DNA of 64,000 nucleotides from Nitrospinaceae bacterium (GTDB taxonomy: Bacteria; Nitrospinota; Nitrospinia; Nitrospinales; Nitrospinaceae), in assembly GCA_965237905.1 (NCBI GenBank), contig OZ250172.1, positions 2,368,001 through 2,432,000 of the forward strand. The letters are read 5' to 3'. Made by a program: the position numbers and the translations under genes. The notes beneath the pieces were generated by a model. That model had not been told where the DNA came from. It did not search any database and saw only the letters and a program-made list of their open reading frames with translations. Of this stretch, positions 41,454-55,551 are shown one piece after another (within the stretch, counting starts at the first letter, position 1; each line of letters starts with the position of its first letter).

Positions 41454-43679
41454 ATGAGGGACCCCGATTCTATTCTATTAATAGAAGACGAAAGCCTGGT
41501 TGTTGAGACGCTGAAAGGCAACTTTCAGGACAATGGCTACCATATCACCACCGCCCACAACGGTGAGGAAGGTCTCCGCAAATTCCAGAGTGACAGCTTC
41601 GATCTGGTGATTACAGACTTGAAATTGCAGGGTATAGATGGCCTGCAAGTGTCAAGGAAGATCAAGAAAATCAATCCTCATATTCCCGTCATCGTGGTCA
41701 CCGGTTATCCCAAACGGTTGACTTCGGATGAAGCTTCCCGGTTTGGCGTCCATGACTTTATGCTCAAACCGTTCACTTGGGCGGAGATGCTCAAGAAAGT
41801 TACGGATTGTCTGGACACTCCTGAAATTACTACCTTTTTGCCCCACCCGAAAGCATCCGATTCCCTGATCGTGGCACGGGAAAAGGAAACGGATATGCCG
41901 GCCGCCCGTTTGGAGGAGCGCCGGGCATCGAAAAGCCGAAAAGACCCCTATCAGAGTCTATCCCAGTTTTTGTCCGGCCAGACCCGTGTCCTGGAGATGT
42001 TGATTCGGGGAGAACCGTTGAAAGAGATTTTAAATGCGTTGATTGCGGAAATGGAATCTTGTTCGGACCAGATATCGGGATCTATTCACTTGTTGAATTC
42101 GGAAAGAGCCCAGCTTGATTGTATTGCGGGCCCCAATCTACCCGCACCCTTGTTGCAGGATATCGGATCAGTCAGCCTGGGAGGTTGGGTGAATCCCTGG
42201 GGAACCGCGGTCACTCAAAACAAACCGATCCTCATTGAAGATATCAACAAGAGCCCCCTTTGGGAGCGGTGTCACGCCTCGGCGAAAACTAATGGATTCA
42301 GAGCATCGTGGTCGTTTCCATTACGAAGTTCCGATCAGCTGGCGCTGGGAGTATTGACCTTTTACAACCGCGAGTCCCGGTCCCCTTCCTCTACGGAGCT
42401 CAAATGGATTTTGTCCGCTACCCGGTTACTGAGCACCATTATGGAATATAAAAACCTGGAAAACACCGGAAGTCAGGCCGAGGATCAGGTTGAAAGTTTT
42501 GTGGAACAAGGTCGAGAAGCCGTGGTGATGTTTAACGATAGAGGGGTGATCGATTCCTTCAATGCGGCGGCAGCTAAATTATTCGGATATTCAGGTAAAA
42601 CGCTGATTGGCCAAAATATCAAAAACCTGATCACCGGACAGAATCCTTCACAAAACCATAACGCGTTCCAAAGAATTGATGACGGAAGCGAAGAGGAGCC
42701 CGGTACCCTAAAAGCGGCGGCTATGGGTCTTCACAAGGATGGGTCCAAGCTGTTTCTGGATTTGTCCGTGGGTGAACTGGCTCAACAAACAGGCCGGAAA
42801 TTTGTCGCGACCCTGGTGGACGTTTCCAAACTGAAATATGCAGAGAAAATCCTCAACGAAACCCGGAATAAACTTGAGGAATTGAATGAATCCTTAATCG
42901 TCCCCGCTAGCGGAGAGTCCCAAAGCCTGCAGAAGCAACTGGTGCAATCGGAAAAATGGGCCGCTACCGGAAAACTGGCCGCTTCGCTGGCCCATGAATT
43001 TAAAAATCCCCTATTTGGAATTCTCAATGTTTTGGAAAGAGCCGCGCGAGAATTCTCCCTGAAGCAGGGTTCTGAAAATTTGCTGGAACTGGCGATCCGG
43101 GAATGCCACCGAGCGATGGGCCTGGTTGAAAAAATGCAGGATATTCATCGGCCTTCTTCCCATTCCGTTGAGCCGATGGATTTGCATTCCGCGATCAAAG
43201 ACATGGTTACGTTGACTCAAGCCCGGTTGCAAAAGCGGAATATCAAGCTGGTGATGGACCTGGATTCCAAGCTTCTCAAAGTTTACGGTATTGAAGATCA
43301 GATCAAGCAGGTGGTACTGAACCTTTTGAACAATGCCGAAGAAGCTATTTCGGATGATGATGGAAAAATTGTCGTAGGAACACGGGCGCTGGAGTCTTCA
43401 TTGAAAATTGTTGTGAAGGATAACGGACAGGGCATCCCGAAAGACCAGCGGCAAAAGGTATTTGAACCTTTTTTTACCACCAAAAAGGATAGCGGAGGCA
43501 TGGGTCTGGGCCTGGCGGTCAGTTATGGAATCATCAAAGCCCATGGCGGCCGGATCGATGTGCAAGAAGGGATTGAGGGCAAGGGCACCTCATTTATTAT
43601 CACGCTCCCTAAACGAACTTCCCGAAAGGCGGGTCGCCGTTCGGATAATTATTTAACACCCACCACTTCCTGGAATTGA
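41454..43679 (+). CDS. Cytoplasmic hybrid histidine kinase (REC-GAF-PAS-HisKA-HATPase)
   Basis: REC (LLIEDE...DLVITD...KP), GAF (ASWSFPL), PAS (FNAAAAKLFGY...HKDG), H-box LAHEFKNP, N-box NLLNNA, and G-boxes DNGQGI, FFTTK and GMGLGL. Confidence 0.92.
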   Translation: MRDPDSILLIEDESLVVETLKGNFQDNGYHITTAHNGEEGLRKFQSDSFDLVITDLKLQGIDGLQVSRKIKKINPHIPVIVVTGYPKRLTSDEASRFGVHDFMLKPFTWAEMLKKVTDCLDTPEITTFLPHPKASDSLIVAREKETDMPAARLEERRASKSRKDPYQSLSQFLSGQTRVLEMLIRGEPLKEILNALIAEMESCSDQISGSIHLLNSERAQLDCIAGPNLPAPLLQDIGSVSLGGWVNPWGTAVTQNKPILIEDINKSPLWERCHASAKTNGFRASWSFPLRSSDQLALGVLTFYNRESRSPSSTELKWILSATRLLSTIMEYKNLENTGSQAEDQVESFVEQGREAVVMFNDRGVIDSFNAAAAKLFGYSGKTLIGQNIKNLITGQNPSQNHNAFQRIDDGSEEEPGTLKAAAMGLHKDGSKLFLDLSVGELAQQTGRKFVATLVDVSKLKYAEKILNETRNKLEELNESLIVPASGESQSLQKQLVQSEKWAATGKLAASLAHEFKNPLFGILNVLERAAREFSLKQGSENLLELAIRECHRAMGLVEKMQDIHRPSSHSVEPMDLHSAIKDMVTLTQARLQKRNIKLVMDLDSKLLKVYGIEDQIKQVVLNLLNNAEEAISDDDGKIVVGTRALESSLKIVVKDNGQGIPKDQRQKVFEPFFTTKKDSGGMGLGLAVSYGIIKAHGGRIDVQEGIEGKGTSFIITLPKRTSRKAGRRSDNYLTPTTSWN

Positions 43680-45076
43680 GTAAAGATATGAGCCAAGGCA
43701 AAGTCATCGTCGTTGAAGATTCAAAGATCATTCGCCTGGGCTACAAGGACACCCTGGAGCGGAGGGATTACGAAGTAGAAACCTTCGATTCGGCGAAAAC
43801 CGCATTGAACCGGATCAGTTTTGGATGGCCCGGAATCATTATCAGTGATGTGATCATGCCGGGAATGGATGGTATCTCCATGATGAAACGGATTAAGGAA
43901 GTGGATTCCGATTTGCCGGTGATTCTTATCACCGGGCAAGGGGATATCCTGACGGCTGTTCAAGCCATCCGCGACGGGGCCTACGATTTTCTGGAAAAAC
44001 CTTTTTCCGGCGAAGTTCTGATGGAAGTGGTTCACCGGGCCATGGAAAAACGGCGTTTGGTCGGGGAGGTCCGCGTTTTAAGGAAAGAAATCAACGACCA
44101 GCAGGAAACCAATTTCAGGATCATCGGCAAATCCCCCGCCATGGCCCGGCTTCGGGAAACGATCACCAGCATGTCCGGTTCCGATCCGGATGTTCTTATT
44201 TTAGGGGAGACGGGTTCTGGAAAAGATCTGGTCGCCCGATGCCTGCATGAAAACAGCCCCCGGAAAGAAAATAATTTTGTTTCCATTAATTGTGGCGCGA
44301 TTCCTGAGAATATTATAGAGAGCGAACTTTTCGGACATGAATCGGGTTCTTTCACCGGGGCGGAGCAACGCCGCATCGGAAAATTCGAGCATGCTCATGG
44401 CGGAACCGTTTTCCTGGATGAAATTGAGAGCATGCCTCTCCACCTTCAGGTAAAGTTGCTCCATGTGCTTCAAGACCGGGTCATTTACCGGGTTGGCTCC
44501 AACGACCCTGTACCGGTCGATATTCGGGTCGTCGCCGCGACCAAAACAGATTTGAAGCAGGCTTTCGAGGAAAATAAATTTCGAAAGGATTTATATTACC
44601 GTCTCAATGTGTTTCAAATGTACCTCCCGCCTATCCGTGAGCGGATGGAAGACATTCCCCTGTTGTTCAATCATTTCGTCTCGGAAATTGGTTGGCGGTA
44701 TAAGGTGTCCGTGCTCACTCTGCCTGCCGGGGATTTTATGCAGAGATTGTTGACGCGACCTTGGGAAGGCAATGTGCGTGAATTGAAAAACGAAGCTGAG
44801 AAATATGTGCTCCAATTGATCATGGATATTCCAGGACAAAACGAGTGCTTTGCGCCTTTTCCTGACAACAGTATCTCTGGAAACGGAGAGATGACTCTGA
44901 ATGATCAATTGACCGCGTTTGAGAAAACTATTATCGAGCAGGAACTCATTCGCCAAAATGGTGATATTAAAAACACCTATCTCGCTTTGGGCATCCCCCG
45001 CCAGACGCTTTATTACAAAATTCAAAAGTACGGTTTAAACCGAAAGCACTACCAAAAAGTTTTGGAAACCTCCTGA
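43676..45076 (+). CDS. sigma54-dependent response regulator (DctD/NtrC family; REC-AAA+-HTH)
   Basis: GETGSGKD, ESELFGHESGSFTGA, FLDEIE, DLYYRLNV, WEGNVREL and a C-terminal Fis-like HTH. The start may be the ATG at 43688. Confidence 0.93.
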   Translation: MSKDMSQGKVIVVEDSKIIRLGYKDTLERRDYEVETFDSAKTALNRISFGWPGIIISDVIMPGMDGISMMKRIKEVDSDLPVILITGQGDILTAVQAIRDGAYDFLEKPFSGEVLMEVVHRAMEKRRLVGEVRVLRKEINDQQETNFRIIGKSPAMARLRETITSMSGSDPDVLILGETGSGKDLVARCLHENSPRKENNFVSINCGAIPENIIESELFGHESGSFTGAEQRRIGKFEHAHGGTVFLDEIESMPLHLQVKLLHVLQDRVIYRVGSNDPVPVDIRVVAATKTDLKQAFEENKFRKDLYYRLNVFQMYLPPIRERMEDIPLLFNHFVSEIGWRYKVSVLTLPAGDFMQRLLTRPWEGNVRELKNEAEKYVLQLIMDIPGQNECFAPFPDNSISGNGEMTLNDQLTAFEKTIIEQELIRQNGDIKNTYLALGIPRQTLYYKIQKYGLNRKHYQKVLETS

Positions 45077-45536
45077 TTTCAATCTCCGTAGGCTTCTCTC
45101 TCCTTAACCATTTTCCCAAGTCATCACACTCAGTGACCGTATCTTAGGGGTTGTCCCCGGTATCAAATACCTTTTTGGAACTCCATCGAGTGTAGTCCCA
45201 AAATGATTTGTTTTCAGTGATAGTCGTTTGTTTCCTAAGGCTTTTTTTAATAAGGAGTTAGCCTGGAAATGGGATTCTTAAAGGGGCTTTCCCGGCCCGT
45301 CTTCATTTTCTCGGCTTTATAACTTTACATCGCTATCTGCTGTAATTACACTAGCATTAAGCCTTTTCCCTGATAAAACAAGACTTTGGATATAAAAACG
45401 GGCTCATTCAGCTGGTTTGATGGATCTGCCTCCATCTCGTTTTTAATTGAAAACAGTCTCCGAATGCTTGGATATTGGGAATCAAGGAGAATCCGTTAAT
45501 TTTGCGTTGGGTTGTTAATGCCAGGAGGTTCATTCC

Positions 45537-48215
45537 ATGGATGATATGAGTCCAATCATCGGCGAGTTTCTTACCGAGAGCTATGAAAATCTGGATCAAT
45601 TAGATCAGGATCTGGTGGATTTGGAAGCCAACCCAGGAGAGAAAAATCTGCTGGCAAGTATTTTCCGGACAATTCATACCATCAAGGGTACCTGCGGCTT
45701 TTTGGGTTTTACCAAACTGGAGTCCGTAGCACATGTCGGTGAAAACCTTCTCAGTAAATTGAGGGACGGGGAACTGAGCATGACCCCGGATATTGCCAAT
45801 TCCTTGTTGACGATGGTGGACGCCGTTCGTGAAATTTTATCCAACATTGAAAACGACCATTCTGAAGGTGACATTGATTATTCCGATCTGGTGGAGTTGA
45901 TCACCCATCTGCAATCCGGCCGAAATCCAGAATCCAAAAAGATAGAAACCACCAAGACCGTCAAGAAGAAAAAGTCCCGCTCGGTTAAAGAGCCTACAGC
46001 ACATTCCGTTAGCGGATCCTTGTTTGAACGTATGGGTGGACAGAATACGATCGATGTCCTGATCGATCAATTTTTTGACAAAGTTTTGGCGGATAAACGG
46101 GTCAAAAAATTTTTCAAGGGTGTGGATACGGAACGCCTTCGAAATAAGGAAAAATCTTATTGGGCCTTTGCTTTTGGCGGAGAGTCCGAGTATGCCGGTA
46201 AAGCTCTGGCAGAAGCTCACCAGCCTTTGCTGGACAAGGGTTTGGCCGACCAGCACTTTGAAGCGATGATGGAGATTTTCAATGAAACCTTGTGTGAAAT
46301 GGATATTCATGCCGATGTGGTTCAGGAAGCTTGCGAAATCGCCTTGTCAACACGGGATGAAATCTTAGGTAGAGCTCAGGCGGAGCCAGTGCCAGCCAGT
46401 GACGATGCCGCCGCCATCGCGGAAGTGAAAGAATCGGTGCGAAGAGATGTGGAGGACCGGAGATCGGGAGATAAGGAAGCTGAAGAAGCTTTTCTGACCT
46501 CGCACAAAGATCGTAGGGCCAGGGGTGACCGCCGATCTGAAAGTATTCGCGTTGATGTAGGTCTTCTGGACAGGCTGATGAATTTGGTGGGTGAACTGGT
46601 CCTGGCGCGTAATCAGATGGTTCAGTTTACAGCCACCGAACCAGACCCCTCCTTTCTTTCCACCACCCAGCATTTAGATCAATTGACTTCCGAGCTTCAG
46701 GAAGGGGTGATGAAAACCCGGATGCAGCCTATTGGCAATATCTGGGACAAATTTCCTCGTGTGGTCCGCGACCTTGCCGCGACGTGCGGTAAAAAAGTTC
46801 GTTTGGATATGGAAGGAAAGGGTACGGAGTTGGACAAGACCTTGATCGAGGCGATCAAGGATCCCATGACTCACATCATCCGGAATTCTGTGGATCATGG
46901 AATTGAGATGCCGGATGAAAGAGTCGCCAACGGAAAAAATCCGGAAGGCCGTCTCTCTCTCCGAGCTTACCATGAAGGCGGCCAGGTCAATATCGAAATC
47001 GTTGATGACGGTGGAGGCATTGATCCTGAAAAAATCAAGACGAAGGCCCTCAGCAAAAACTTGATCACTCCTCAGGATGCCAGCCATATGAGTGATCGTG
47101 AACTCATCAATTTGATCTTTGCTCAGGGGTTTTCCACGGTGGAGACGGTATCCCATCTATCCGGTCGTGGAGTTGGCATGGATGTGGTCAAGTCCAATAT
47201 AGAAAAAATCGGAGGAACCGTCGATATTCAATCAAAGGTAGGGCAGGGGACGACACTGAAAGTTAAAATTCCCCTGACCCTGGCAATTATCCCCGCATTG
47301 ATTGTGACTTGCGGGACTTTGAGGTATGCGATTCCCCAAGTGAGCCTTATGGAATTGGTTCGGCTGGAGGTGGTTGAGGGTGAATCGGCCATCGAAACCA
47401 TTCAAGGGTCTCCTGTCTATCGGCTCCGCGGCAATCTTCTTCCCCTCGTTTACCTGAAGGAGGCATTGGAGATTGAGGGTCCATCCAACTCTGATGCCGT
47501 GAATGTGGCAATCTTGCAAGCGGGTTCCTGCCAGTTTGGTTTGGTGGTTGATGGCATCAACGATTCCGAGGAAATTGTGGTGAAGCCTCTCGGCAAGCTA
47601 TTCAATGGAATAACCACTTATGCCGGCGCTACGATCATGGGAGATGGCAAGGTGGTCCTGATTCTTGATGCCATGGGGCTGGCGCAAAAGGCTCATGTTG
47701 TGGATCAAGAAGGCCGCGATCATGTCCGTAAGGATGTCAACGACCAGGAAGAAGCCAAGGGCATCGATTACCAAACACTTCTTGTCTTCTCTCCAGGCAA
47801 CGAAACCCGGATGGCGGTGCCCTTGTCCATGGTGGCACGGCTCGAGGAGTTCAATCCAGACATACTGGAAAACTCTGATGGGAAGCAAGTGGTTCAGTAT
47901 CGGGGTAATATCATGCCCTTGATTTTTCTGTCCGATGTTTTTGGTATGGATACCTCAAGGAAAGAAGAAGATACCGTGCGTGTCATTGTCTATTCCGATC
48001 AAGGGCGAAGCGTGGGTGTGGTGGTAGACAAAATCATTGATATTGTGGAAGAGGCGGTGACCCTTAAAAAGGGATCGGTTGGGCAGGGTTTGCTGGGTTC
48101 TACAGTGGTCCAGGATAAGGTGACCGATCTCTTGGATGTCGAAGATGTGATTCGCCGGGTCGATCCGGACTTTTACAAAAACCAGCCGGTTGCCACATCC
48201 AATAATATTGAATAA
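45537..48215 (+). CDS. cheA: CheA-like kinase with an inserted truncated-haemoglobin domain and tandem C-terminal CheW domains
   Basis: Hpt IFRTIHTIKG, group-I truncated globin at ~46017-46370, dimerisation domain IRVDVGLLDRLMNLVGELVLARN, kinase HIIRNSVDHGIE/DDGGGID/GFST/SGRGVGMDVV, and two CheW-like domains. Confidence 0.93.
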   Translation: MDDMSPIIGEFLTESYENLDQLDQDLVDLEANPGEKNLLASIFRTIHTIKGTCGFLGFTKLESVAHVGENLLSKLRDGELSMTPDIANSLLTMVDAVREILSNIENDHSEGDIDYSDLVELITHLQSGRNPESKKIETTKTVKKKKSRSVKEPTAHSVSGSLFERMGGQNTIDVLIDQFFDKVLADKRVKKFFKGVDTERLRNKEKSYWAFAFGGESEYAGKALAEAHQPLLDKGLADQHFEAMMEIFNETLCEMDIHADVVQEACEIALSTRDEILGRAQAEPVPASDDAAAIAEVKESVRRDVEDRRSGDKEAEEAFLTSHKDRRARGDRRSESIRVDVGLLDRLMNLVGELVLARNQMVQFTATEPDPSFLSTTQHLDQLTSELQEGVMKTRMQPIGNIWDKFPRVVRDLAATCGKKVRLDMEGKGTELDKTLIEAIKDPMTHIIRNSVDHGIEMPDERVANGKNPEGRLSLRAYHEGGQVNIEIVDDGGGIDPEKIKTKALSKNLITPQDASHMSDRELINLIFAQGFSTVETVSHLSGRGVGMDVVKSNIEKIGGTVDIQSKVGQGTTLKVKIPLTLAIIPALIVTCGTLRYAIPQVSLMELVRLEVVEGESAIETIQGSPVYRLRGNLLPLVYLKEALEIEGPSNSDAVNVAILQAGSCQFGLVVDGINDSEEIVVKPLGKLFNGITTYAGATIMGDGKVVLILDAMGLAQKAHVVDQEGRDHVRKDVNDQEEAKGIDYQTLLVFSPGNETRMAVPLSMVARLEEFNPDILENSDGKQVVQYRGNIMPLIFLSDVFGMDTSRKEEDTVRVIVYSDQGRSVGVVVDKIIDIVEEAVTLKKGSVGQGLLGSTVVQDKVTDLLDVEDVIRRVDPDFYKNQPVATSNNIE

Positions 48216-48276
48216 TCGGTTGTTAATGATTTTGGATATCGAAACAGTGGTGGAATGTGATGCGGTTACGGCATAA
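48208..48276 (+). pseudogene. cheW: C-terminal remnant of a deleted cheW gene
   Basis: A frame overlapping the cheA stop reads LNNRLLMILDIETVVECDAVTA-stop, resembling the last strand and helix of CheW, at the position where cheW usually follows cheA. Confidence 0.55.
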
Positions 48277-48366
48277 TGGTGTACTTCCTAATGAATTCAA
48301 TGGATTGCCGCTGATTTTACCTGAATTAGATTCGGGGAATTCTCATGAAACCACTAAGGTAGGCAG

Positions 48367-51300
48367 ATGAATAAATCGAATAAAGGTTTCCTGAGTTTTC
48401 TTCTGGGTGGTCGCAAGCTTCTTTTGCTGACACTTTTGGGGCTCGCCGTCATCGTTTTAGTCGGTTTAAATGCAGTTAAAAAACAGCTTGAAAGAAACCT
48501 TTCCTCCGAACTGCAAACCATTCTCCAATCCAATCAGGATACCTTGGGAATTTGGAACCAGGAAAAAAGCTCTCAGGTAAAAAATTGGGCGAACAATCCC
48601 AATGTGAGAGCAAACATCCTTTCATTGTCGCAGCGCACTCTACAAGAAAAAGTACCCCCAGACACTCTTTTAAAGAGCAAGGAGCTGGAAGAGCTCCGCA
48701 AAATTCTGGGTCCGGTATGTAACCGACACAATTATGTAGAGTTCGTTGTATTCAACTCTTCCGGATTGCAGATTGGTGCTTTATTAGACAAAACCGTAGG
48801 TCAACGGGAATTGGTTGCGTATTCGGATTTCATAAGGCGGTCTCTGAAAGGGGAAACGGTAGTTTCCCTTCCCTTCTTTTCGGAGACTCCCCTGCCCACT
48901 ATTCATGGACAATGGAAGGAAGATTGGCCGACCATGTTCATTTCTGCTCCGGTCCGGGATGATTCTGGCGATGTAGTGGCCGTTCTATCTTTCCGGTTGA
49001 GACCGGAAATCGAATTTTCCAGAATCACGGAATTGGGCAGAACGGGTGAGTCAGGGGAAACCTATGCATTTAATGAAAGTGGATTTTTGATCAGTAACAG
49101 CCGGTTCGATGATCAGCTCAGAGACATTGGAATTCTTTCGGACGATCCAGACCAGATGTCCATGTTAGCGGTGAAGCTGATTGAACGAGGTAAATACGTT
49201 AACAAGAGAAACCCTCGCTTGACCCAGGCGGTCGGCAGCGCCCTCAAGGGTGAAAACGGGGTGGATATTAATGGATACCCGGATTACCGGGGTGTGAGGG
49301 TGATTGGAGCTTGGACCTGGATGGAGGAATATGGTTTTGGCCTGACTACGAAAATCGATGTGGACGAAGCTTTTGCGCCCTTGATCATTATGAAGCGCGT
49401 ATTTGTTTCCTTTTTTGCATTGCTGTTGGTAGCCATTGGAGCCTTCTGGTTTGTTTCGACCCGCGAGCGTAAATTAGAGAAAGAGCGCAAGAAAGTTTCT
49501 GGTTTACTGGAAGACAGTGAAAAAAAGGCTGATCTGATTTTATCGAGTACCCTCGACGGAATTGTCACGATTCTTCCCAACGGCATGATTCAGTCGTTCA
49601 ATCTCGCTGCCGAAAAAATCTTCGGTTATAAGGCGGAGGAAGTGATCGGTAAAAACGTGAAACTTCTGATGCCTGAACCGTATTTCAGCGAGCATGACTG
49701 GTATTTGAAAAAGTATTTACTGACCGGGGAAAAAAAAATTCTGGGAACCGTGCGGGAGGTTCCTGGACGGCGCAAAGACGGATCCATTTTTGATTTGGAA
49801 ATTGCCATCAGTGAAATCTTTCTGCAAGACGAGCGAGTATTCATCGGATTGGTCCGGGATATTACGGAGAGAAAACGGGTGGAGGCCTTGTCGAATCGTA
49901 TGGGCCGTATTCTAGACGATTCTTTCAATGAGATTTATATCTTTGACGTTAAAACGTTTAAATACGTCGAAGTCAATCGAGGCGCTTGTGAAAATCTGGG
50001 ATACCTAAAGGAAGAGCTCCTGCAATTAACCCCATTTGATATTTTCCCGGAATTTGGACCGGAGCGGTTAGAAAAACTGGTTACGCCCCTGCGGCGCGAG
50101 TCGGCCTCCCGCATTGTATTTGAAACCGAGCAGACGCGAAAGGACGGCTCCAGTTACCCGGTGGAAGTCCGTTTGCAGTTGACTGCTATCGACGGGAGCT
50201 CCCTGTTTTTGGCTATTGTGCAGGATATTACAGAGCGGAAGAAAGCGGAGCAGGTGCGATTGCAGGCTCAAAATGAACTGGAGGACCGGGTTCAGCAGCG
50301 GACGGTGGAATTGAAGGATGTTAATGAGGTTTTAAGAGAAGAAATTGCCGAGCGGGAAGTCATGGAAAGGGCTTTAAGGGATAATGAAGCTCAAATCCGC
50401 GCCATTGTCGAGAATGTGGTGGATGGTATCGTGACCATTGATGAAGAGGGAACCATTGAGTTGTTCAACCCCACTGCCGAGGAAATTTTTGGATATTCGG
50501 CAAAGGAAGTGATTGGTGAAAATATCAGCATGTTGATGCCTCAACCTTATCAAGGCGAGCATGATGGCTATATGCAAAGCTACCATGAAACCGGAGAGGC
50601 CAAGATCCTCGGGTTGAAACGGGAAGTCTGGGGCTTAAGGAAAGATGGCTCGGTTTTTCCCATGGAGTTGGCCATTAATGAATTTTATATCGGCGAGCGG
50701 AGGGCGTATACCGGCGTCGTTCAGGATATTACAGAGAAGAAGCAGGCTCAATGGTCTTTGGATCGTCTGACCCGGCAAAACGAGTTGATTCTTAAATCCG
50801 TTGGAGATGGAATATTTGGGATGAACCTGGAAGGTGAGATCACATTTTATAATCCCTCTGCTTTAAAAATGACCCGGTTTGATGAAAACGAGTTGGTGGG
50901 AAAATCTTTGCACGAGGTCCTGAGTCTTCCTCATGAGGAGAAATCGCCTCTTAGTCAAGACTATCCTCTGTATCAGGTATTCAAGGAAGGTCAGACTCAA
51001 TCTAAAGATGAAGAAGTGTTTTGGACAAAAGAGGGTTCCGCCTTGTTGGCGGAATATATATGCGCTCCTATTTATGAGGATGAAAAAATTGTAGGGGCAG
51101 TGGTCACGTTTCGTGACATTTTAAGAAGGAAGCGGGTGGAGGAGGCGCTGGTCCAGGCGAAAGAAGAGGCGGAGCGTGCCAACCGGGCCAAATCGGATTT
51201 TTTATCCCGGATGAGTCACGAATTGAGGACTCCCATGAATTCCATCCTGGGCTTTGCGCAAATTCTCGAAATGGATAAAATCGATCGTCTGACGACTCGG

Positions 51301-52338
51301 CAAAAACCCTGGGTCAGCCAAGTTCGGAAGGCTGGAGATCATTTGCTGGAACTGATCAATGAGATATTGGATCTGGCTCGTATTGAATCGGGTAAAATGA
51401 CTGTGACCATGGAAAATGTGGATGTCGTTCCTCTTATGAAAGAAGTGCTGGTTTTGATTATGCCGATGTCGAAAGATAGAAAAATCAAAATTGTAAATAT
51501 GGTTTCCATTCCCAGTCTGGTGGTCTTTGGGGACCGGATTCGCTTGAGACAAGTTTTCTTGAATTTATTGTCCAATGCGGTCAAGTACAATATCGAAAAT
51601 GGCATTATTTCTATTTATTATAGAAAAACTTCCGAAGGAAAAATCCGGATCAGTATCGAAGATTCGGGCATTGGGGTTTCTAAAGATAAAATCAATGATT
51701 TGTTTGAGCCCTTTGCAAGGCTGGATGCCGATAGCTCGGAAGTCGAGGGAACCGGCATCGGACTTACCATAACCCGACGCTTGGTCGAACAAATGAGTGG
51801 GGACATCTCCGTTAAAAGTACTCTGGATAAAGGCAGTTGTTTTACCCTGGAACTTCCAGCCGGGGCGGCCCAGGAAGTAGAGAGGGATCCAGAAGATGCC
51901 AGAGTTGAGTTTTCGCAACAATCACTGAACCCGAATGAGAACTATACTCTTTTATATATCGAGGATAACCCGGATAATCTGATTTTGATCAGGCAGGTTT
52001 TGAAAACCCGGCCGAATATTCGTTTGATTTTTTCAAGGGACAGCAGGACGGGGATTGAGCTTGCCTTGGCGCATCACCCGGACTTGATTTTAATGGATAT
52101 TAACCTCCCGGGTATGGATGGCTTTACCGCATTGAAGGCTCTACGGGCCTATCGGGGAATCCGTTCCATCCCCGTTATTGCAGTAAGTGCCAATGCCATG
52201 CAAGATGATATTGATCATGGATTGGAGGCAGGTTTTGATTCTTATATTACCAAACCTATTAATATTGCCCGGTTTATGGAAGTGGTGGACCGGTTGTTAG
52301 TACAGAAAAAAGGAGCTTCTTTAAATTCTTCTTCATAA
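48367..52338 (+). CDS. Membrane hybrid histidine kinase: TM-Cache-like-TM, four PAS (two FixL-like), HisKA, HATPase, REC
   Basis: Two TM segments, PAS motifs MPEPYFSEHDWYL and MPQPYQGEHDGYM, MSHELRTPMN, NLLSNAVKY, GTGIGL and a C-terminal REC (YIEDN...LMDINLP...KP). Confidence 0.93.
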   Translation: MNKSNKGFLSFLLGGRKLLLLTLLGLAVIVLVGLNAVKKQLERNLSSELQTILQSNQDTLGIWNQEKSSQVKNWANNPNVRANILSLSQRTLQEKVPPDTLLKSKELEELRKILGPVCNRHNYVEFVVFNSSGLQIGALLDKTVGQRELVAYSDFIRRSLKGETVVSLPFFSETPLPTIHGQWKEDWPTMFISAPVRDDSGDVVAVLSFRLRPEIEFSRITELGRTGESGETYAFNESGFLISNSRFDDQLRDIGILSDDPDQMSMLAVKLIERGKYVNKRNPRLTQAVGSALKGENGVDINGYPDYRGVRVIGAWTWMEEYGFGLTTKIDVDEAFAPLIIMKRVFVSFFALLLVAIGAFWFVSTRERKLEKERKKVSGLLEDSEKKADLILSSTLDGIVTILPNGMIQSFNLAAEKIFGYKAEEVIGKNVKLLMPEPYFSEHDWYLKKYLLTGEKKILGTVREVPGRRKDGSIFDLEIAISEIFLQDERVFIGLVRDITERKRVEALSNRMGRILDDSFNEIYIFDVKTFKYVEVNRGACENLGYLKEELLQLTPFDIFPEFGPERLEKLVTPLRRESASRIVFETEQTRKDGSSYPVEVRLQLTAIDGSSLFLAIVQDITERKKAEQVRLQAQNELEDRVQQRTVELKDVNEVLREEIAEREVMERALRDNEAQIRAIVENVVDGIVTIDEEGTIELFNPTAEEIFGYSAKEVIGENISMLMPQPYQGEHDGYMQSYHETGEAKILGLKREVWGLRKDGSVFPMELAINEFYIGERRAYTGVVQDITEKKQAQWSLDRLTRQNELILKSVGDGIFGMNLEGEITFYNPSALKMTRFDENELVGKSLHEVLSLPHEEKSPLSQDYPLYQVFKEGQTQSKDEEVFWTKEGSALLAEYICAPIYEDEKIVGAVVTFRDILRRKRVEEALVQAKEEAERANRAKSDFLSRMSHELRTPMNSILGFAQILEMDKIDRLTTRQKPWVSQVRKAGDHLLELINEILDLARIESGKMTVTMENVDVVPLMKEVLVLIMPMSKDRKIKIVNMVSIPSLVVFGDRIRLRQVFLNLLSNAVKYNIENGIISIYYRKTSEGKIRISIEDSGIGVSKDKINDLFEPFARLDADSSEVEGTGIGLTITRRLVEQMSGDISVKSTLDKGSCFTLELPAGAAQEVERDPEDARVEFSQQSLNPNENYTLLYIEDNPDNLILIRQVLKTRPNIRLIFSRDSRTGIELALAHHPDLILMDINLPGMDGFTALKALRAYRGIRSIPVIAVSANAMQDDIDHGLEAGFDSYITKPINIARFMEVVDRLLVQKKGASLNSSS

Positions 52339-52350
52339 TTATGGGAATCT

Positions 52351-53511
52351 ATGTTGAATCTAAAAGCTTATCTGAAATCTAAAATACTGATTGTGGACGA
52401 CGAGCCAGGCAACGTCCTTCTTCTGGAACAAATGATGATCCAGGAGGGATACGACCGTCTTCACAGTACCTCTGATTCTACACAGTCCCTTGGATTGTTT
52501 ACCGAGGTCCAGCCGGATTTAGTATTGCTGGATTTGAATATGCCGCAGATGGATGGTTTCGAGGTTATGGAGCAGTTGAAGAAAGCGGACCCGGAATCGC
52601 TGGTTCCCATTTTGGTGTTGACTGCTTTGAAAGACGAGGAAACGAAGTTGCGCGCCTTGAGGTCGGGAGCCAAGGACTTTTTGAGTAAACCCTTCGATCT
52701 GACAGAAGCGAGCTTGCGCATCAAGAATCTTTTGGAGATGCGATTCTTGCATCAAGAAGTTCAAAAGCATAATCAGATATTGGAGGATCAAGTTCAGGTG
52801 CGAACAGCGGAGCTGGAAAGATCCACAGAAGAATTGGCAAACTTCGCCTATATCGCGTCTCACGATCTTCAGGAACCGTTAAGGAAGATCATCACGTTCG
52901 GAGACCGGCTTGCCGGAAAGTTCGGCTCGGTTTTAAACGATACGGGCAAGGATTATATTGATCGAATGCAAAAATCTGCGATTCGCATGAAGGGTTTGAT
53001 CGATGGTCTCCTTCATTTTTCCAAGGTCACCATGCATTCAACCCCTTTTCAGGAAATTGATTTGAACGAGGCGATATCGGAAGTGTTGGCGGACCTGGAA
53101 GTCCAGATTGAAAGAACCAAGGGGCGGGTGGAGGTGGATACCCTTCCCAGTATTCAAGGGGAACAGTTTCAAATACGCCAATTATTCCAAAACCTGATTT
53201 CCAACGGCCTCAAGTACCATCGTGATGAAGAGGCTCCTGTGATCAAAATCAAATATGCCGGGTTCGATAAGAACCTTGAAGAAATTTATATCGAAGATAA
53301 TGGAAAAGGGTTTGATGAAAAACATCTGGATCGGATTTTTCGTCCCTTTGAACGCCTTCATGGCCATAGTGAATATGGGGGGACGGGAATGGGGCTGGCA
53401 ATTTGCCATAAAATAGTTACGCACCATAAAGGACAGATCACCGCAAAGAGTCAACCGAATCAAGGTGCCACGTTTATCGTAAAACTTCCTTCCAAGCAGA
53501 AGACAGAATGA
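52351..53511 (+). CDS. REC-HisKA-HATPase hybrid kinase
   Basis: ILIVDDE...LLDLNMP...KPF, ASHDLQEPLRKI, NLISNGLKY and GTGMGLAIC. Confidence 0.92.
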   Translation: MLNLKAYLKSKILIVDDEPGNVLLLEQMMIQEGYDRLHSTSDSTQSLGLFTEVQPDLVLLDLNMPQMDGFEVMEQLKKADPESLVPILVLTALKDEETKLRALRSGAKDFLSKPFDLTEASLRIKNLLEMRFLHQEVQKHNQILEDQVQVRTAELERSTEELANFAYIASHDLQEPLRKIITFGDRLAGKFGSVLNDTGKDYIDRMQKSAIRMKGLIDGLLHFSKVTMHSTPFQEIDLNEAISEVLADLEVQIERTKGRVEVDTLPSIQGEQFQIRQLFQNLISNGLKYHRDEEAPVIKIKYAGFDKNLEEIYIEDNGKGFDEKHLDRIFRPFERLHGHSEYGGTGMGLAICHKIVTHHKGQITAKSQPNQGATFIVKLPSKQKTE

Positions 53512-53885
53512 AACAGGGGAAAATATTATTGGTAGATGATGAGGTGATTATCCTCGAAACCGTTGGCGACGACCTGAGAGAGGCAGGATTCAATGTGGTC
53601 CAAGCTAACAACGGCACCGAAGGACTCCGCCAATTCAAGGCAGGAGAGTTTGACTTGGTGATCAGTGATCTGATGATGGATGAAGTGGACGGTTTCGGAG
53701 TGCTGAGAGAAATTAAAAGAATTTCTCCGGAGACGCCCGTTATCATCATTACCGGATACCCTTCTTCCAAAGCCTCCAAAGAAGCTCTTATTCTGGGAGC
53801 AAATGATATCATCATCAAGCCCTCTGGCTTGGGGGAAATATTTAAAGTCATAAGTCAGCATATCGGCCCCCCAAAAAGCGGATGA
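53508..53885 (+). CDS. Single-domain response regulator (REC only)
   Basis: ILLVDDE, DLVISDLMM, IIITG and IKP. Its start overlaps the upstream stop (ATGA). Confidence 0.9.
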   Translation: MKQGKILLVDDEVIILETVGDDLREAGFNVVQANNGTEGLRQFKAGEFDLVISDLMMDEVDGFGVLREIKRISPETPVIIITGYPSSKASKEALILGANDIIIKPSGLGEIFKVISQHIGPPKSG

Positions 53886-54086
53886 GATAAAAAGTCTCGT
53901 CCTCCTTCAGGAACTCCTTCCACCGTCCCACCCAGCGTTGTGATGTTTCCCGTTCTGAAACAGTCTGTGCGAACCCCGCGACGCAAAGTGTTTCATATCC
54001 GGGATTTCGTATGTCAGCAGTGGCATCCATTCGACTCGCTGTTTAATAAAGCTAAATAAAACAATAGCTTATTTATTATCGGTGTA

Positions 54087-54102
54087 TGGCATATAAATTG
54101 CT
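54087..54102 (+). promoter_or_regulatory. sigma54 (-24/-12) promoter
   Basis: TGGCATATAAATTGCT has GG-N10-GC spacing. An AT-rich IHF-like tract lies just upstream, and the inverted repeat TGTTTC-N7-GAAACA at 53944-53962 is a candidate enhancer. Confidence 0.75.
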
Positions 54103-54170
54103 ATTCATGTGTATAGAAGTCAATGAAATTAATGAATGGATCATTCTTAAACTTACCTTAGGAGGCAGGC

Positions 54171-54392
54171 ATGTTTTATGAAGTCCGGATATACAAAGCA
54201 GATGGCACGTTGAAAAAACAGATTTCCCGTACTGAATTGAGTGACAAGCATTGGGAAAATTTTGAAAAGATCGAAGGAGAGATCGGCCTCAATACCTCTG
54301 GAACGAAACCCGTACCGGCATGGGTTAAGGCCAAATTGGATGTGGAATTTCCGACCAACTTGGAATTGGATCATCAAAGTTCCCAGGGTTAA
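54171..54392 (+). CDS. Small hypothetical protein (73 aa)
   Basis: Strong AGGAGG ribosome-binding site, located between the sigma54 promoter and the HD-GYP gene. Confidence 0.75.
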   Translation: MFYEVRIYKADGTLKKQISRTELSDKHWENFEKIEGEIGLNTSGTKPVPAWVKAKLDVEFPTNLELDHQSSQG

Positions 54393-54420
54393 ACCGGGAT
54401 AATCAATTGGAGACTTGCTA

Positions 54421-55551
54421 ATGAATTATCCCAATTTTCCGAAAAGATCCTTTGAGGATGTCCTGGACTGTAAGATTCTTGTCGTCGACGACGAAGAAAT
54501 CAACGTCAAGCTATTGGAGTATTTGCTCCTCCGGAACGGATATCGTTCGGTACGCTCGACTACCGACCCGCGCGATGTAGTACAACTTTATCTGGAATTT
54601 CGTCCGGATTTAGTTCTTCTGGACCTCAATATGCCTCATATGGATGGTGTTGAGGTCATGGAAAAACTTTATGGAATCGAAACAGAAACGTATCCCTCCA
54701 TTGTAATTATTACTGCAAACAATAATGATGAAGCCAAGATCCGTTGTTTGGATTCGGGAGCGTTGGATTTTCTTGCCAAGCCCTTCAATGCGGTGGAAGT
54801 GGTGGCGCGTATCAAAAATATATTGAATATCCGCCTGCTTCACAATCGCATCAATCATCAGAATAAAATTTTGGATCAGAAAATCCGGGAGAGGACCCAG
54901 GAGTTGTCCGATACCCGGTTAGAAGTCGCCCAGCGACTGAGCCGCGCCGCGGAATGTCGGGATAATGAAACCGGCATGCACGTCATTCGTATGAGCCGTT
55001 ATTCCTATCTTTTGGCAGAAGCGGTAGGGCTGTCCATCAATCAATGTGAGCTGTTACAGCACGCCAGCCCGATGCACGACATCGGTAAAATCGGAATTCC
55101 CGACAGCATTTTGCTGAAACCCGGTAAGCTGGATGCAGAGGAATGGAAAATTATGAAAAGCCATACCGAAATCGGAGGAAAAATTCTTTCCGGTTCCGAT
55201 TCCAATCTGATGCAAATGGCTGAAAGCATCGCCCGCACCCATCATGAGAAATGGGATGGTTCGGGATATCCTCAAGGATTGAAAGGTGAGGACATTCCTT
55301 TGGAAGGACGTATTGTGGCTGTTTGCGACGTGTTTGACGCGCTTACTTCCGAGCGTCCTTATAAAAAACAATGGTCGGTGGAAAAGGCTGTTCAAGAGTT
55401 AAAAGATAATTCCGGCATTCACTTTGATCCGGTTCTGGTGAACAAATTTATCGAAATCCTGCCGCAGGTTCTGAGAGTCATGGAATGCTGTCAGGATGAG
55501 CCGGCCCCGGAAGAAGTGTTGAAGGCGCAACCCGTTTTGCATCCCCACTAA
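54421..55551 (+). CDS. REC + HD-GYP cyclic-di-GMP phosphodiesterase (RpfG-like)
   Basis: REC domain, RDNETGMHVIR, MHDIGKIGIPD, HHEKWDGSGYP and DVFDALTSERPYK. The start is the ATG at 54421 or the TTG at 54415. Confidence 0.93.
   Translation: MNYPNFPKRSFEDVLDCKILVVDDEEINVKLLEYLLLRNGYRSVRSTTDPRDVVQLYLEFRPDLVLLDLNMPHMDGVEVMEKLYGIETETYPSIVIITANNNDEAKIRCLDSGALDFLAKPFNAVEVVARIKNILNIRLLHNRINHQNKILDQKIRERTQELSDTRLEVAQRLSRAAECRDNETGMHVIRMSRYSYLLAEAVGLSINQCELLQHASPMHDIGKIGIPDSILLKPGKLDAEEWKIMKSHTEIGGKILSGSDSNLMQMAESIARTHHEKWDGSGYPQGLKGEDIPLEGRIVAVCDVFDALTSERPYKKQWSVEKAVQELKDNSGIHFDPVLVNKFIEILPQVLRVMECCQDEPAPEEVLKAQPVLHPH

Follow-up and report, generated by a model that had tools for sequence, protein, structure and literature searches.

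Can a signal enter a bacterial chemotaxis pathway at the kinase itself? The question is raised by a cheA gene (45537..48215) in a 64,000-nucleotide stretch of the genome of a Nitrospinaceae bacterium (GenBank assembly GCA_965237905.1, contig OZ250172.1, positions 2,368,001 to 2,432,000 of the forward strand). This stretch is called the window here, and its coordinates are used unless another contig is given. In the encoded histidine kinase, a globin lies between the phosphotransfer domain (P1) and the dimerization domain (P3). A sequence-only reading of the window had proposed a CheA with a truncated haemoglobin in place of P2, acting as a receptor-independent gas sensor. We find that the globin is a group I truncated haemoglobin that likely binds haem, that globin-CheA fusions recur in Nitrospinota with the globin under purifying selection, and that a complete receptor pathway is encoded elsewhere in the genome. 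The globin may thus be a second input to a receptor-coupled kinase.

A globin is inserted in the sole CheA of the genome

The open reading frame on the plus strand is intact. Pfam matches Hpt at residues 8-99, Bac_globin at 161-268 (43.8 bits against a cut-off of 21 bits, E 3.5e-11), H-kinase_dim at 334-394 and HATPase_c at 442-581, followed by CheW twice. The architecture foreseen by the sequence-only reading was therefore found, with CheW duplicated, and the peptide that it quoted from between Hpt and the dimerization domain is exact. The gene and its parts are as follows.

45537..48215, plus strand: cheA, 892 amino acids, Hpt-globin-dimerization-HATPase-CheW-CheW, sole CheA of the genome
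45558..45833, plus strand: P1/Hpt domain, PF01627, residues 8-99
45921..46013, plus strand: linker 1, Lys-rich and flexible, residues 129-159; pLDDT <50 at 132-158, dN/dS ~0.46 versus G032
46017..46370, plus strand: group I truncated (2/2) globin domain, residues 161-278, from Pfam, sequence matches and structure model; dN/dS ~0.13 versus G032
46371..46535, plus strand: linker 2, flexible, residues 279-333; pLDDT <50 at 281-311 and 316-340
46536..46718, plus strand: P3 dimerization domain, PF02895, residues 334-394
46860..47279, plus strand: P4 HATPase catalytic domain, PF02518, residues 442-581
47295..47690, plus strand: first CheW-like (P5) domain
47778..48158, plus strand: second CheW-like (P5) domain

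The best Foldseek matches of the kinase are CheA proteins, and its P4 superposes on that of Thermotoga maritima CheA with a TM score of 0.9 by target length. His47 (codon 45675-45677), which from CheA homology we take to be the phospho-accepting site of P1, is at least 90% conserved in the alignments. The ATP-box residues are conserved as well, and what we take to be the N, G1, F and G2 boxes of P4 are intact. In an AlphaFold model of the full-length protein (25-row alignment) the globin is well formed, and the domain arrangement is not fixed (pTM 0.35). The window is one piece, with zero differing letters in two public contig sets that are possibly the source of the DNA and hence not independent. 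A pseudogene was rejected on the open frame and the purifying selection described below; an assembly chimera or chance match was ruled out because the fusion is common to 82 proteins.

The canonical five-domain layout of CheA is not seen here: Pfam found no P2 or CheY-binding domain in this protein, PF07194 had no match genome-wide, and the precomputed domains of 120 profile-search rows contained none. About 52% of CheAs have no P2 (PMC10782961). Duplication of CheW is typical of the F5 class, 99% of which have two CheW domains, and is also seen in some F1 and one F10 CheA (PMC10782961). A set of 120 genomes of the phylum was searched with the CheA protein, and 75 gave a match. Among the best 30 phylum loci, 12 hold the globin at this position, 13 only a low-complexity linker of 66-104 residues and 5 a second Hpt. 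Orthologues with a second Hpt, with or without a globin, include loci L018, L023, L033, L035 and L036 and proteins P0006, P0007, P0033, P0050 and P0052. Conserved DRR motifs of linker 2 are also present in globin-less orthologues. The globin thus stands in the place of P2 by position, but the globin-less orthologues have a linker or a second Hpt there and never P2. Replacement of P2 was rejected because the two-CheW family has none, and the globin is an insert in a P2-less, two-CheW CheA.

The haem-anchoring residues are kept in a remodelled pocket

The best solved relatives of the globin piece are group I truncated haemoglobins, with 27 solved sequences at E ≤0.01 and Synechocystis cyanoglobin leading (E 5.9e-23). 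Globin matches to group I reached E values down to 3e-8, compared with 3e-3 or weaker for groups II and III, which places this 2/2 fold nearest group N. No NCBIfam model matched the globin piece. An AlphaFold model of the domain (12-row alignment; pLDDT 92, pTM 0.86) superposes on 1dly and 6cii with TM scores of 0.87-0.88, and with 1idr included the range is 0.84-0.88. Profile and structure comparisons therefore both bear out the globin identity first read from the sequence. The two GG motifs (G167-G168 and G214-G215), Phe193 at CD1 and His228 at F8 also lie where they had been placed. Helix-position labels follow what we take to be the numbering of Synechocystis GlbN, transferred through the cyanoglobin alignment.

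46218..46220, plus strand: proximal His228 (F8), predicted ligand of the haem iron, aligned with the EAH motif of cyanoglobin
46074..46163, plus strand: distal-pocket codons from the cyanoglobin alignment, B10 Phe180 (46074), CD1 Phe193 (46113), E7 Leu201 (46137), E10 Lys204 (46146), E11 Glu205 (46149) and E15 Trp209 (46161)

From these residues and the model, the globin likely binds haem b via His228. The ligand-stabilizing network of Tyr-B10 and Gln-E11, common though not universal in group I, is absent, with Phe180 and Glu205 at these positions. Hydrogen bonds from Tyr-B10 and Gln-E11 have been linked to slow release of O2, and the lack of these bonds to rapid release; globins of low affinity act as sensors of NO, CO or redox state, and E15 is counted among the long-tunnel residues (PMC4720485). 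Residue E10 may coordinate the iron (PMC11904497). Group I truncated haemoglobins carry out NO dioxygenation, and deoxy truncated haemoglobins reduce nitrite to NO (PMC7082302). The pocket Phe-B10/Leu-E7/Lys-E10/Glu-E11/Trp-E15, shared within the clade, is predicted to bind O2 weakly. With the hydrogen-bond donors at B10 and E11 gone, this copy is less likely to have O2 as its ligand; the effect of Glu-E11 on ligand binding could go either way.

Globin-coupled sensors carry an N-terminal 3/3 globin of the S family (protoglobin, PF11563). PF11563 had no match on this CheA or in the genome, and the fold here is 2/2; globin-CheA is not a member of the globin-coupled sensor family. A stand-alone truncated globin is also encoded in the genome (G000:C1:530742-531224, L003), with a hydrophobic, signal-peptide-like N-terminal extension and Ala replacing Tyr-B10, and similar stand-alone globin reading frames of 125-190 amino acids occur in many Nitrospinota.

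Globin-CheA proteins recur and the globin is under selection

Globin-CheA sequences were collected from proteins P0001-P0120 and the 30 loci, less 11 loci identical to listed proteins. Globin and kinase core occur together in 82 non-identical proteins, mostly from Nitrospinota, with 84 globin domains, and among 148 new representatives at 50% identity, 9 more combine globin with CheA parts. The named relatives of the CheA protein are from Nitrospinota or Nitrospinaceae; one globin-CheA is labelled Alphaproteobacteria. The globin may sit in the P1-P3 linker, between the CheW domains (P0058) or at the C terminus (P0075, P0077), and these varied positions together with the alphaproteobacterial member suggest repeated recruitment. 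When residues 1-400 were compared with the ESM Atlas, the leads all scored <0.9, including a 67-member Hpt + Bac_globin cluster, mostly from Pseudomonadota, at 0.81. A pattern search of genome contigs with the globin region gave 598 pattern matches, none of them confirmed. Separate from the CheA fusions, P0021 and P0121-P0140 are proteins of 400-1900 amino acids in which as many as 12 group I globin domains stand in tandem; P0021 carries cytochrome b5 and protoglobin Pfam labels too.

Across the 84 CheA globin domains, His-F8 is found in 77, Phe-CD1 in 82, Phe-G5 in 81, Leu-E7 in 74 and Lys-E10 in 55, and within Nitrospinota His-F8 and Phe-CD1 are among the most conserved positions of the globin. 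At position B10, 55 domains have Tyr and 24 have Phe; at E11, 51 have Gln and 17 have Glu; and at E15, 20 have Trp. B10, E10, E11 and E15 differ by clade, and the full set seen in the window (Phe-B10/Leu-E7/Lys-E10/Glu-E11/Trp-E15/His-F8) occurs in 17. Largely constant F8, CD1 and G5 residues with clade-variable distal ones are the pattern of a haem site that has been retuned and is not decaying. Within its own clade, globin positions 197-209 are identical in 14-17 of 17 sequences.

Relative to G032, dN/dS is ~0.13 for the globin (0.105/0.82), 0.07-0.08 for P1, P3 and P4, and 0.13 and 0.08 for the two P5 domains; the linkers have values of 0.46 and 0.27. The globin value is ~0.2 relative to G037 and G034, for which dS is close to saturation. 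These values indicate purifying selection on the globin.

A quick tree of the kinase core was built from 122 rows after 21 identical cores were dropped; only supported nodes were used, and counts of group changes were disregarded because globin-less rows are ungrouped. Globin-less G030 groups with 18 globin-bearing rows in a clade of 99% support, and G010 with three such rows in a clade of 96% support. The globin module is inherited with the kinase and has been lost repeatedly. A tree of the globin (124 columns) does not separate one origin from several. Two further matches are unusual: the cheA match of G037 (L009) has one internal TAG, probably with read-through into the adjacent cheW, and in the single-contig genome G090 (C1, 132 kb; L082) an Hpt + globin reading frame of only ~323 amino acids is possibly a broken cheA.

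The receptor pathway is complete but scattered

The genome (G000) is one contig of 3.09 Mb, 96% complete. CheA is single-copy in it, with one genome match for the Hpt and CheW parts and one strong match for the kinase core. The sole methyl-accepting chemotaxis protein (MCP), at C1:868 kb, is a transmembrane protein of 562 amino acids with HAMP and MCPsignal domains, whose periplasmic part is nearest to sCache clusters (0.98). It shares 93% and 87% identity with the only MCP of congeners G030 and G032, respectively, and its signalling tip and methylation helices are intact, as are CheW, CheB and CheR. One free CheW is encoded; cheB has a divergently oriented cheY-like gene, and a further cluster holds cheY-like, cheR and cheX genes with a neighbouring PilZ gene. 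Two stand-alone CheY-like receivers, flagellins and FliM/FliN are present, FliM having at its N terminus an LSQxEVDALL-type motif that we take to be a CheY site. All parts of a flagellar chemotaxis set (MCP, CheW, CheA, CheY-like, CheB, CheR, phosphatase and flagellar switch) are thus in the genome, as single-copy che genes dispersed over five loci of G000:C1 (868, 2206, 2414, 2768 and 2860 kb). With one well-conserved MCP and CheW, CheB, CheR, CheX and CheY-like genes, the receptor pathway is complete but scattered. It had been noted earlier that no MCP, CheR or CheB is nearby; this is true of the window, but all three are encoded elsewhere. The che neighbours are missing because the che genes are scattered and a cheW has been lost locally.

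Since the MCP carries no globin and the genome gave no protoglobin match, the globin of CheA is the only one on a chemotaxis component. Nitrite oxidoreductase (NXR) A subunit (E 0 to 7b04_B) and NirK (above cut-off) were also matched, from which we take the organism to be a nitrite oxidizer of the Nitrospinota. MCP number across family members ranges from 9 down to none, and globin-CheA also occurs in genomes with 7-8 MCPs (G034, G018, G019). No CheA, MCP or globin match was obtained in four near-complete genomes (G023-G026).

The cheY-like, cheR and cheX genes and the convergent PilZ gene (L005:6256-8441) adjoin dnaK-grpE, a possible c-di-GMP input to chemotaxis. Beside cheB (L004:9141-11662), open reading frames read by eye resemble a ferredoxin-nitrite reductase and a formate/nitrite transporter.

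The cheA locus is a reduced che cluster

Sixteen neighbourhoods were fetched, of which the 14 with a whole cheA were examined. In the genus the gene order is kinase, sigma-54 activator, cheA, kinase.

41454..43679, plus strand: REC-GAF-PAS histidine kinase, upstream, conserved neighbour
43676..45076, plus strand: NtrC-type sigma-54 activator, upstream, conserved neighbour of cheA in the family and in G061/G098
45318..45352, plus strand: conserved upstream box, likely cheA promoter/operator, sigma-70-like TTTACA-17-TACACT overlapping a TTACA...TGTAA inverted repeat
48208..48276, plus strand: cheW 3' remnant, last ~22 codons and stop, from tblastn to the adjacent CheW of G037
48367..52338, plus strand: Cache-PAS4 hybrid histidine kinase, downstream, conserved neighbour in the genus

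In G037 and G034 a cheW directly follows cheA. The remnant in the window is identical to the adjacent CheW of G037 at 11 of 22 positions (E 4e-4), a match reached by none of 200 shuffles, and its DNA is 73% identical to G037 over 201 bases, extending into the next gene. On this comparison, the locus is best read as a reduced che cluster in which the neighbouring cheW has been deleted. The remnant, the second CheW domain and the remodelled distal pocket had been overlooked in the sequence-only reading. The C-terminal extensions of P0006 and P0007 resemble the remnant stretch in another frame.

Other neighbourhoods retain more chemotaxis genes, and soluble globin or PAS receptors adjoin the same cheA in G037, G061 and G098. 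In G037, a soluble MCP of 1034 amino acids with three Bac_globin domains is inserted before cheA. This protein (L068:4068-7169, G037:C13) has the F8 His in two globins and not in the third, an internal duplication of the first globin, a PAS-like stretch (no Pfam match) and a short, eroded signalling domain. The order in G061 and G098 is sigma-54 activator, PAS-MCP, globin-cheA, cheW, and in G051 and G042 globin-cheA lies among cheY-like, cheX and cheB genes.

The upstream box occurs in 7 of 9 aligned upstream regions, namely those of cheA in G000, G030, G032, G034, G010 and G037 and of the globin-MCP gene in G037; it is absent in G019 and G020. Elsewhere in the genome it has no perfect match, and one site with 3 mismatches was found compared with 1 per shuffle. 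The box is likely a sigma-70-type promoter on which an inverted repeat is superimposed. A search for canonical sigma-54 -24/-12 sites gave none ahead of cheA in G000 and matches in G019 and G020. More widely, window positions 41454-55551 form a dense two-component island of three kinases, a sigma-54 activator, a lone receiver and a REC-HD-GYP-like protein, in an order kept across the genus and in G010.

How the globin might act

Direct gas or redox modulation of CheA is still the leading idea because the domain is a real group I globin with its haem-anchoring residues, conserved and under selection. The reading that we prefer, at about an even chance, is that the tethered haem globin gives a receptor-coupled CheA a second input, dependent on gas or redox state, beside the MCP and not replacing it. 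The globin, held on flexible linkers between P1 and P3, would bind haem b through His228, and we predict that the kinase itself operates in an ordinary array together with CheW and the one membrane receptor. The ligand or the oxidation state of the haem would alter the E-helix surface or the coordination of the globin, Lys-E10 being a candidate sixth haem ligand, and this change would shift how often tethered P1 reaches P4 or passes phosphate to CheY. The level of phosphorylated CheY, and then flagellar switching, would be altered, with adaptation via CheB/CheR methylation of the one MCP. Most relatives, with the O2-stabilizing pair Tyr-B10/Gln-E11, are predicted to read O2; for this copy the signal that we favour is NO or the redox state of the haem, which nitrite or NO would set in a cell that has NXR and NirK. 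Architecture, fold, residues, selection and gene inventory are shown directly; haem loading, ligand identity, coupling to kinase activity and flagellar output are what we infer. That CheA is the kinase for a FliM-binding CheY we infer from its single copy and the N-terminal motif of FliM, and the sigma-54 neighbours allow another output.

A stronger form of this idea, tentative and clearly short of an even chance, is that in a one-receptor system the kinase itself would be the gas sensor. The globin would then gate P1-P4 phosphorylation directly, and the unrelated receptor would give adaptation. With the pocket retuned from O2 to NO or nitrite-driven redox, taxis toward a niche would be possible in a cell that has no haem receptor.

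Several observations weigh against a signalling role of the globin. Coupling to the kinase is the weak point: the linkers on both sides are predicted to be disordered, and the full-length model (pTM 0.35) gave no allosteric path. Glu-E11, Trp-E15 and Met-G8 could block the pocket instead of tuning it. His-F8 has been lost in 7 of the 84 CheA globins, and yet those domains persist. In comparisons with 56 relatives the globin averages an identity of 0.49, and the core domains 0.60-0.77. The globin is also dispensable, since 18 of the best 30 phylum loci are without it and the alignment of G030, which has no Bac_globin match, shows a clean domain deletion. Chemotaxis is eroding in the genus, G033 (97% complete) having no cheA match, and according to a 2015 source motility was as yet unseen in cultured Nitrospina (PMC5029188).

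Some of these points would be explained if the globin had been kept for its fold or surface, as a spacer setting the reach of P1 or as a docking pad for CheY, CheB or a receptor, doing the job of P2. This is rather unlikely. Orthologues hold nothing, a second Hpt or a globin at the same position, the 7 copies that lack His-F8 persist, and E-helix residues that helical spacing would put on the side opposite the haem do not vary within the clade, all of which would suit a spacer; the conservation of His-F8 and Phe-CD1 would not, and co-ordinated, clade-specific changes at B10, E11, E14 and E15 would be needless for one. We consider it improbable that the globin binds haem but exerts no allosteric control of the kinase, serving locally as an enzyme (NO dioxygenase or nitrite reductase) or as a relay that shuttles haem or gas to a soluble array receptor with a globin or PAS domain. 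The known catalysis by group I proteins (PMC7082302), the Tyr-B10 and Gln-E11 of most relatives (55 and 51 of 84) and the soluble globin or PAS MCPs beside cheA in G037, G061 and G098 fit such a role. Against it, however, the genome has a separate stand-alone globin, the globin of CheA remains under selection with no soluble haem receptor left in the genome, and this copy is without the O2-stabilizing residues linked to NO detoxification in the title of a reference cited in PMC4720485.

The globin might also modulate CheA with the phosphate passing to the adjacent sigma-54 activator or receiver-kinase hybrids, so that the output would be transcription and not swimming. A kinase and sigma-54 activator pair precedes cheA in 9 of the 14 neighbourhoods (G032, G037, G034, G030, G019, G020, G010 and G061, with the activator only in G098), and in those 9 cheY is not adjacent. 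We nonetheless hold this to be quite improbable: a cognate kinase of the activator is encoded upstream of it, cheA is preceded by a conserved promoter-like box of its own, globin-cheA sits among cheY-like, cheX and cheB genes in G051 and G042, and this is the only CheA available here for two CheY-like proteins, CheX and FliM. Very improbable is the free-standing, receptor-independent gas-sensing kinase originally proposed, for which the lack of any other intact che gene in the window, the deletion of the adjacent cheW and the presence of only one MCP in the genome might be cited. Both P5 domains, through which CheA binds receptors and CheW, are under purifying selection, however, the conserved MCP, CheW, CheB and CheR are intact elsewhere in the genome, which also encodes CheX, and the globin also occurs in genomes with 7-8 MCPs.

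Relation to known systems

The globin of CheA resembles Synechocystis GlbN (1s69), Chlamydomonas eugametos LI637 (1dly), Chlamydomonas reinhardtii THB1 (6cii) and Mycobacterium tuberculosis trHbN (1idr) in its 2/2 fold, two GG motifs, Phe-CD1 and His-F8. Those proteins stand alone, whereas this globin is internal to a kinase and has Phe-B10/Glu-E11/Trp-E15 where Tyr/Gln/Leu or Phe are usual. AfGcHK is a globin-coupled histidine kinase, and the likeness to it is that of a globin haem as the proposed gas input to a histidine kinase. In carbohydrate taxis through the phosphotransferase system (PTS) of Escherichia coli, the state of Enzyme I feeds into the CheA complex. There too a non-periplasmic signal enters at or near CheA and adaptation is left to receptor methylation, but the PTS input is a separate protein reporting sugar uptake and not a fused haem domain.

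Leu-E7 with Lys-E10 is found in Chlamydomonas THB11 as well (PMC7082302). In domain layout the kinase resembles the F5-class CheAs of Rhodospirillum centenum, Azospirillum brasilense, Caulobacter crescentus and Azorhizobium caulinodans, which share Hpt-dimerization-HATPase-CheW-CheW without P2 (PMC10782961); it differs in having no C-terminal receiver, in the globin insert and in che genes that are scattered instead of in one operon. In the globin-coupled sensor HemAT, too, the haem of a globin is the proposed means by which a gas signal enters a chemotaxis pathway (PMC13401364). Globin-coupled sensors have an S-family 3/3 globin, N-terminal and continuous with a helical output (PMC8076648), in contrast to the T-family 2/2 globin between disordered linkers here. 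The same Pfam globin family enters a chemosensory pathway in Cc_4972 of Corallococcus coralloides, a PAS-Bac_globin-MCPsignal receptor that the triple-globin MCP of G037 resembles, but there the globin is on the receptor and not the kinase, and the function of Cc_4972 is also only predicted (PMC6194562).

A survey of 13,673 CheAs (Berry, Andrianova & Zhulin 2023) describes CheA as having no sensor domain and relying on chemoreceptors; its available text mentions no globin fusion, and the strings 'globin' and 'Nitrospin' are absent from its three supplements, which list one CZB fusion (PMC10782961). The survey therefore records odd domains but did not sample Nitrospinota. No paper on a globin-CheA fusion was found in listings and abstracts, a coverage that mostly leaves out subscription journals. 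Globin-CheA is a real, recurring variant of CheA for which no description was found in that literature.

What this window adds is a one-receptor inventory on a single contig, the cheW remnant, a congener with a clean deletion, a triple-globin receptor as neighbour in a relative, and a retuned pocket. With the recurring fusion it can be tested directly whether the P1 tether of the kinase is an entry point for signals, and a haem-competent globin would give a spectroscopic handle on P1-P4 dynamics. The case is a clean one, with one CheA, one non-globin receptor and a congener (G030) that has the same receptor and a precise globin deletion. The pocket variants (Tyr/Gln, Phe/Glu/Trp and His-less) form a ready series that may link haem chemistry to kinase output in nitrite oxidizers.

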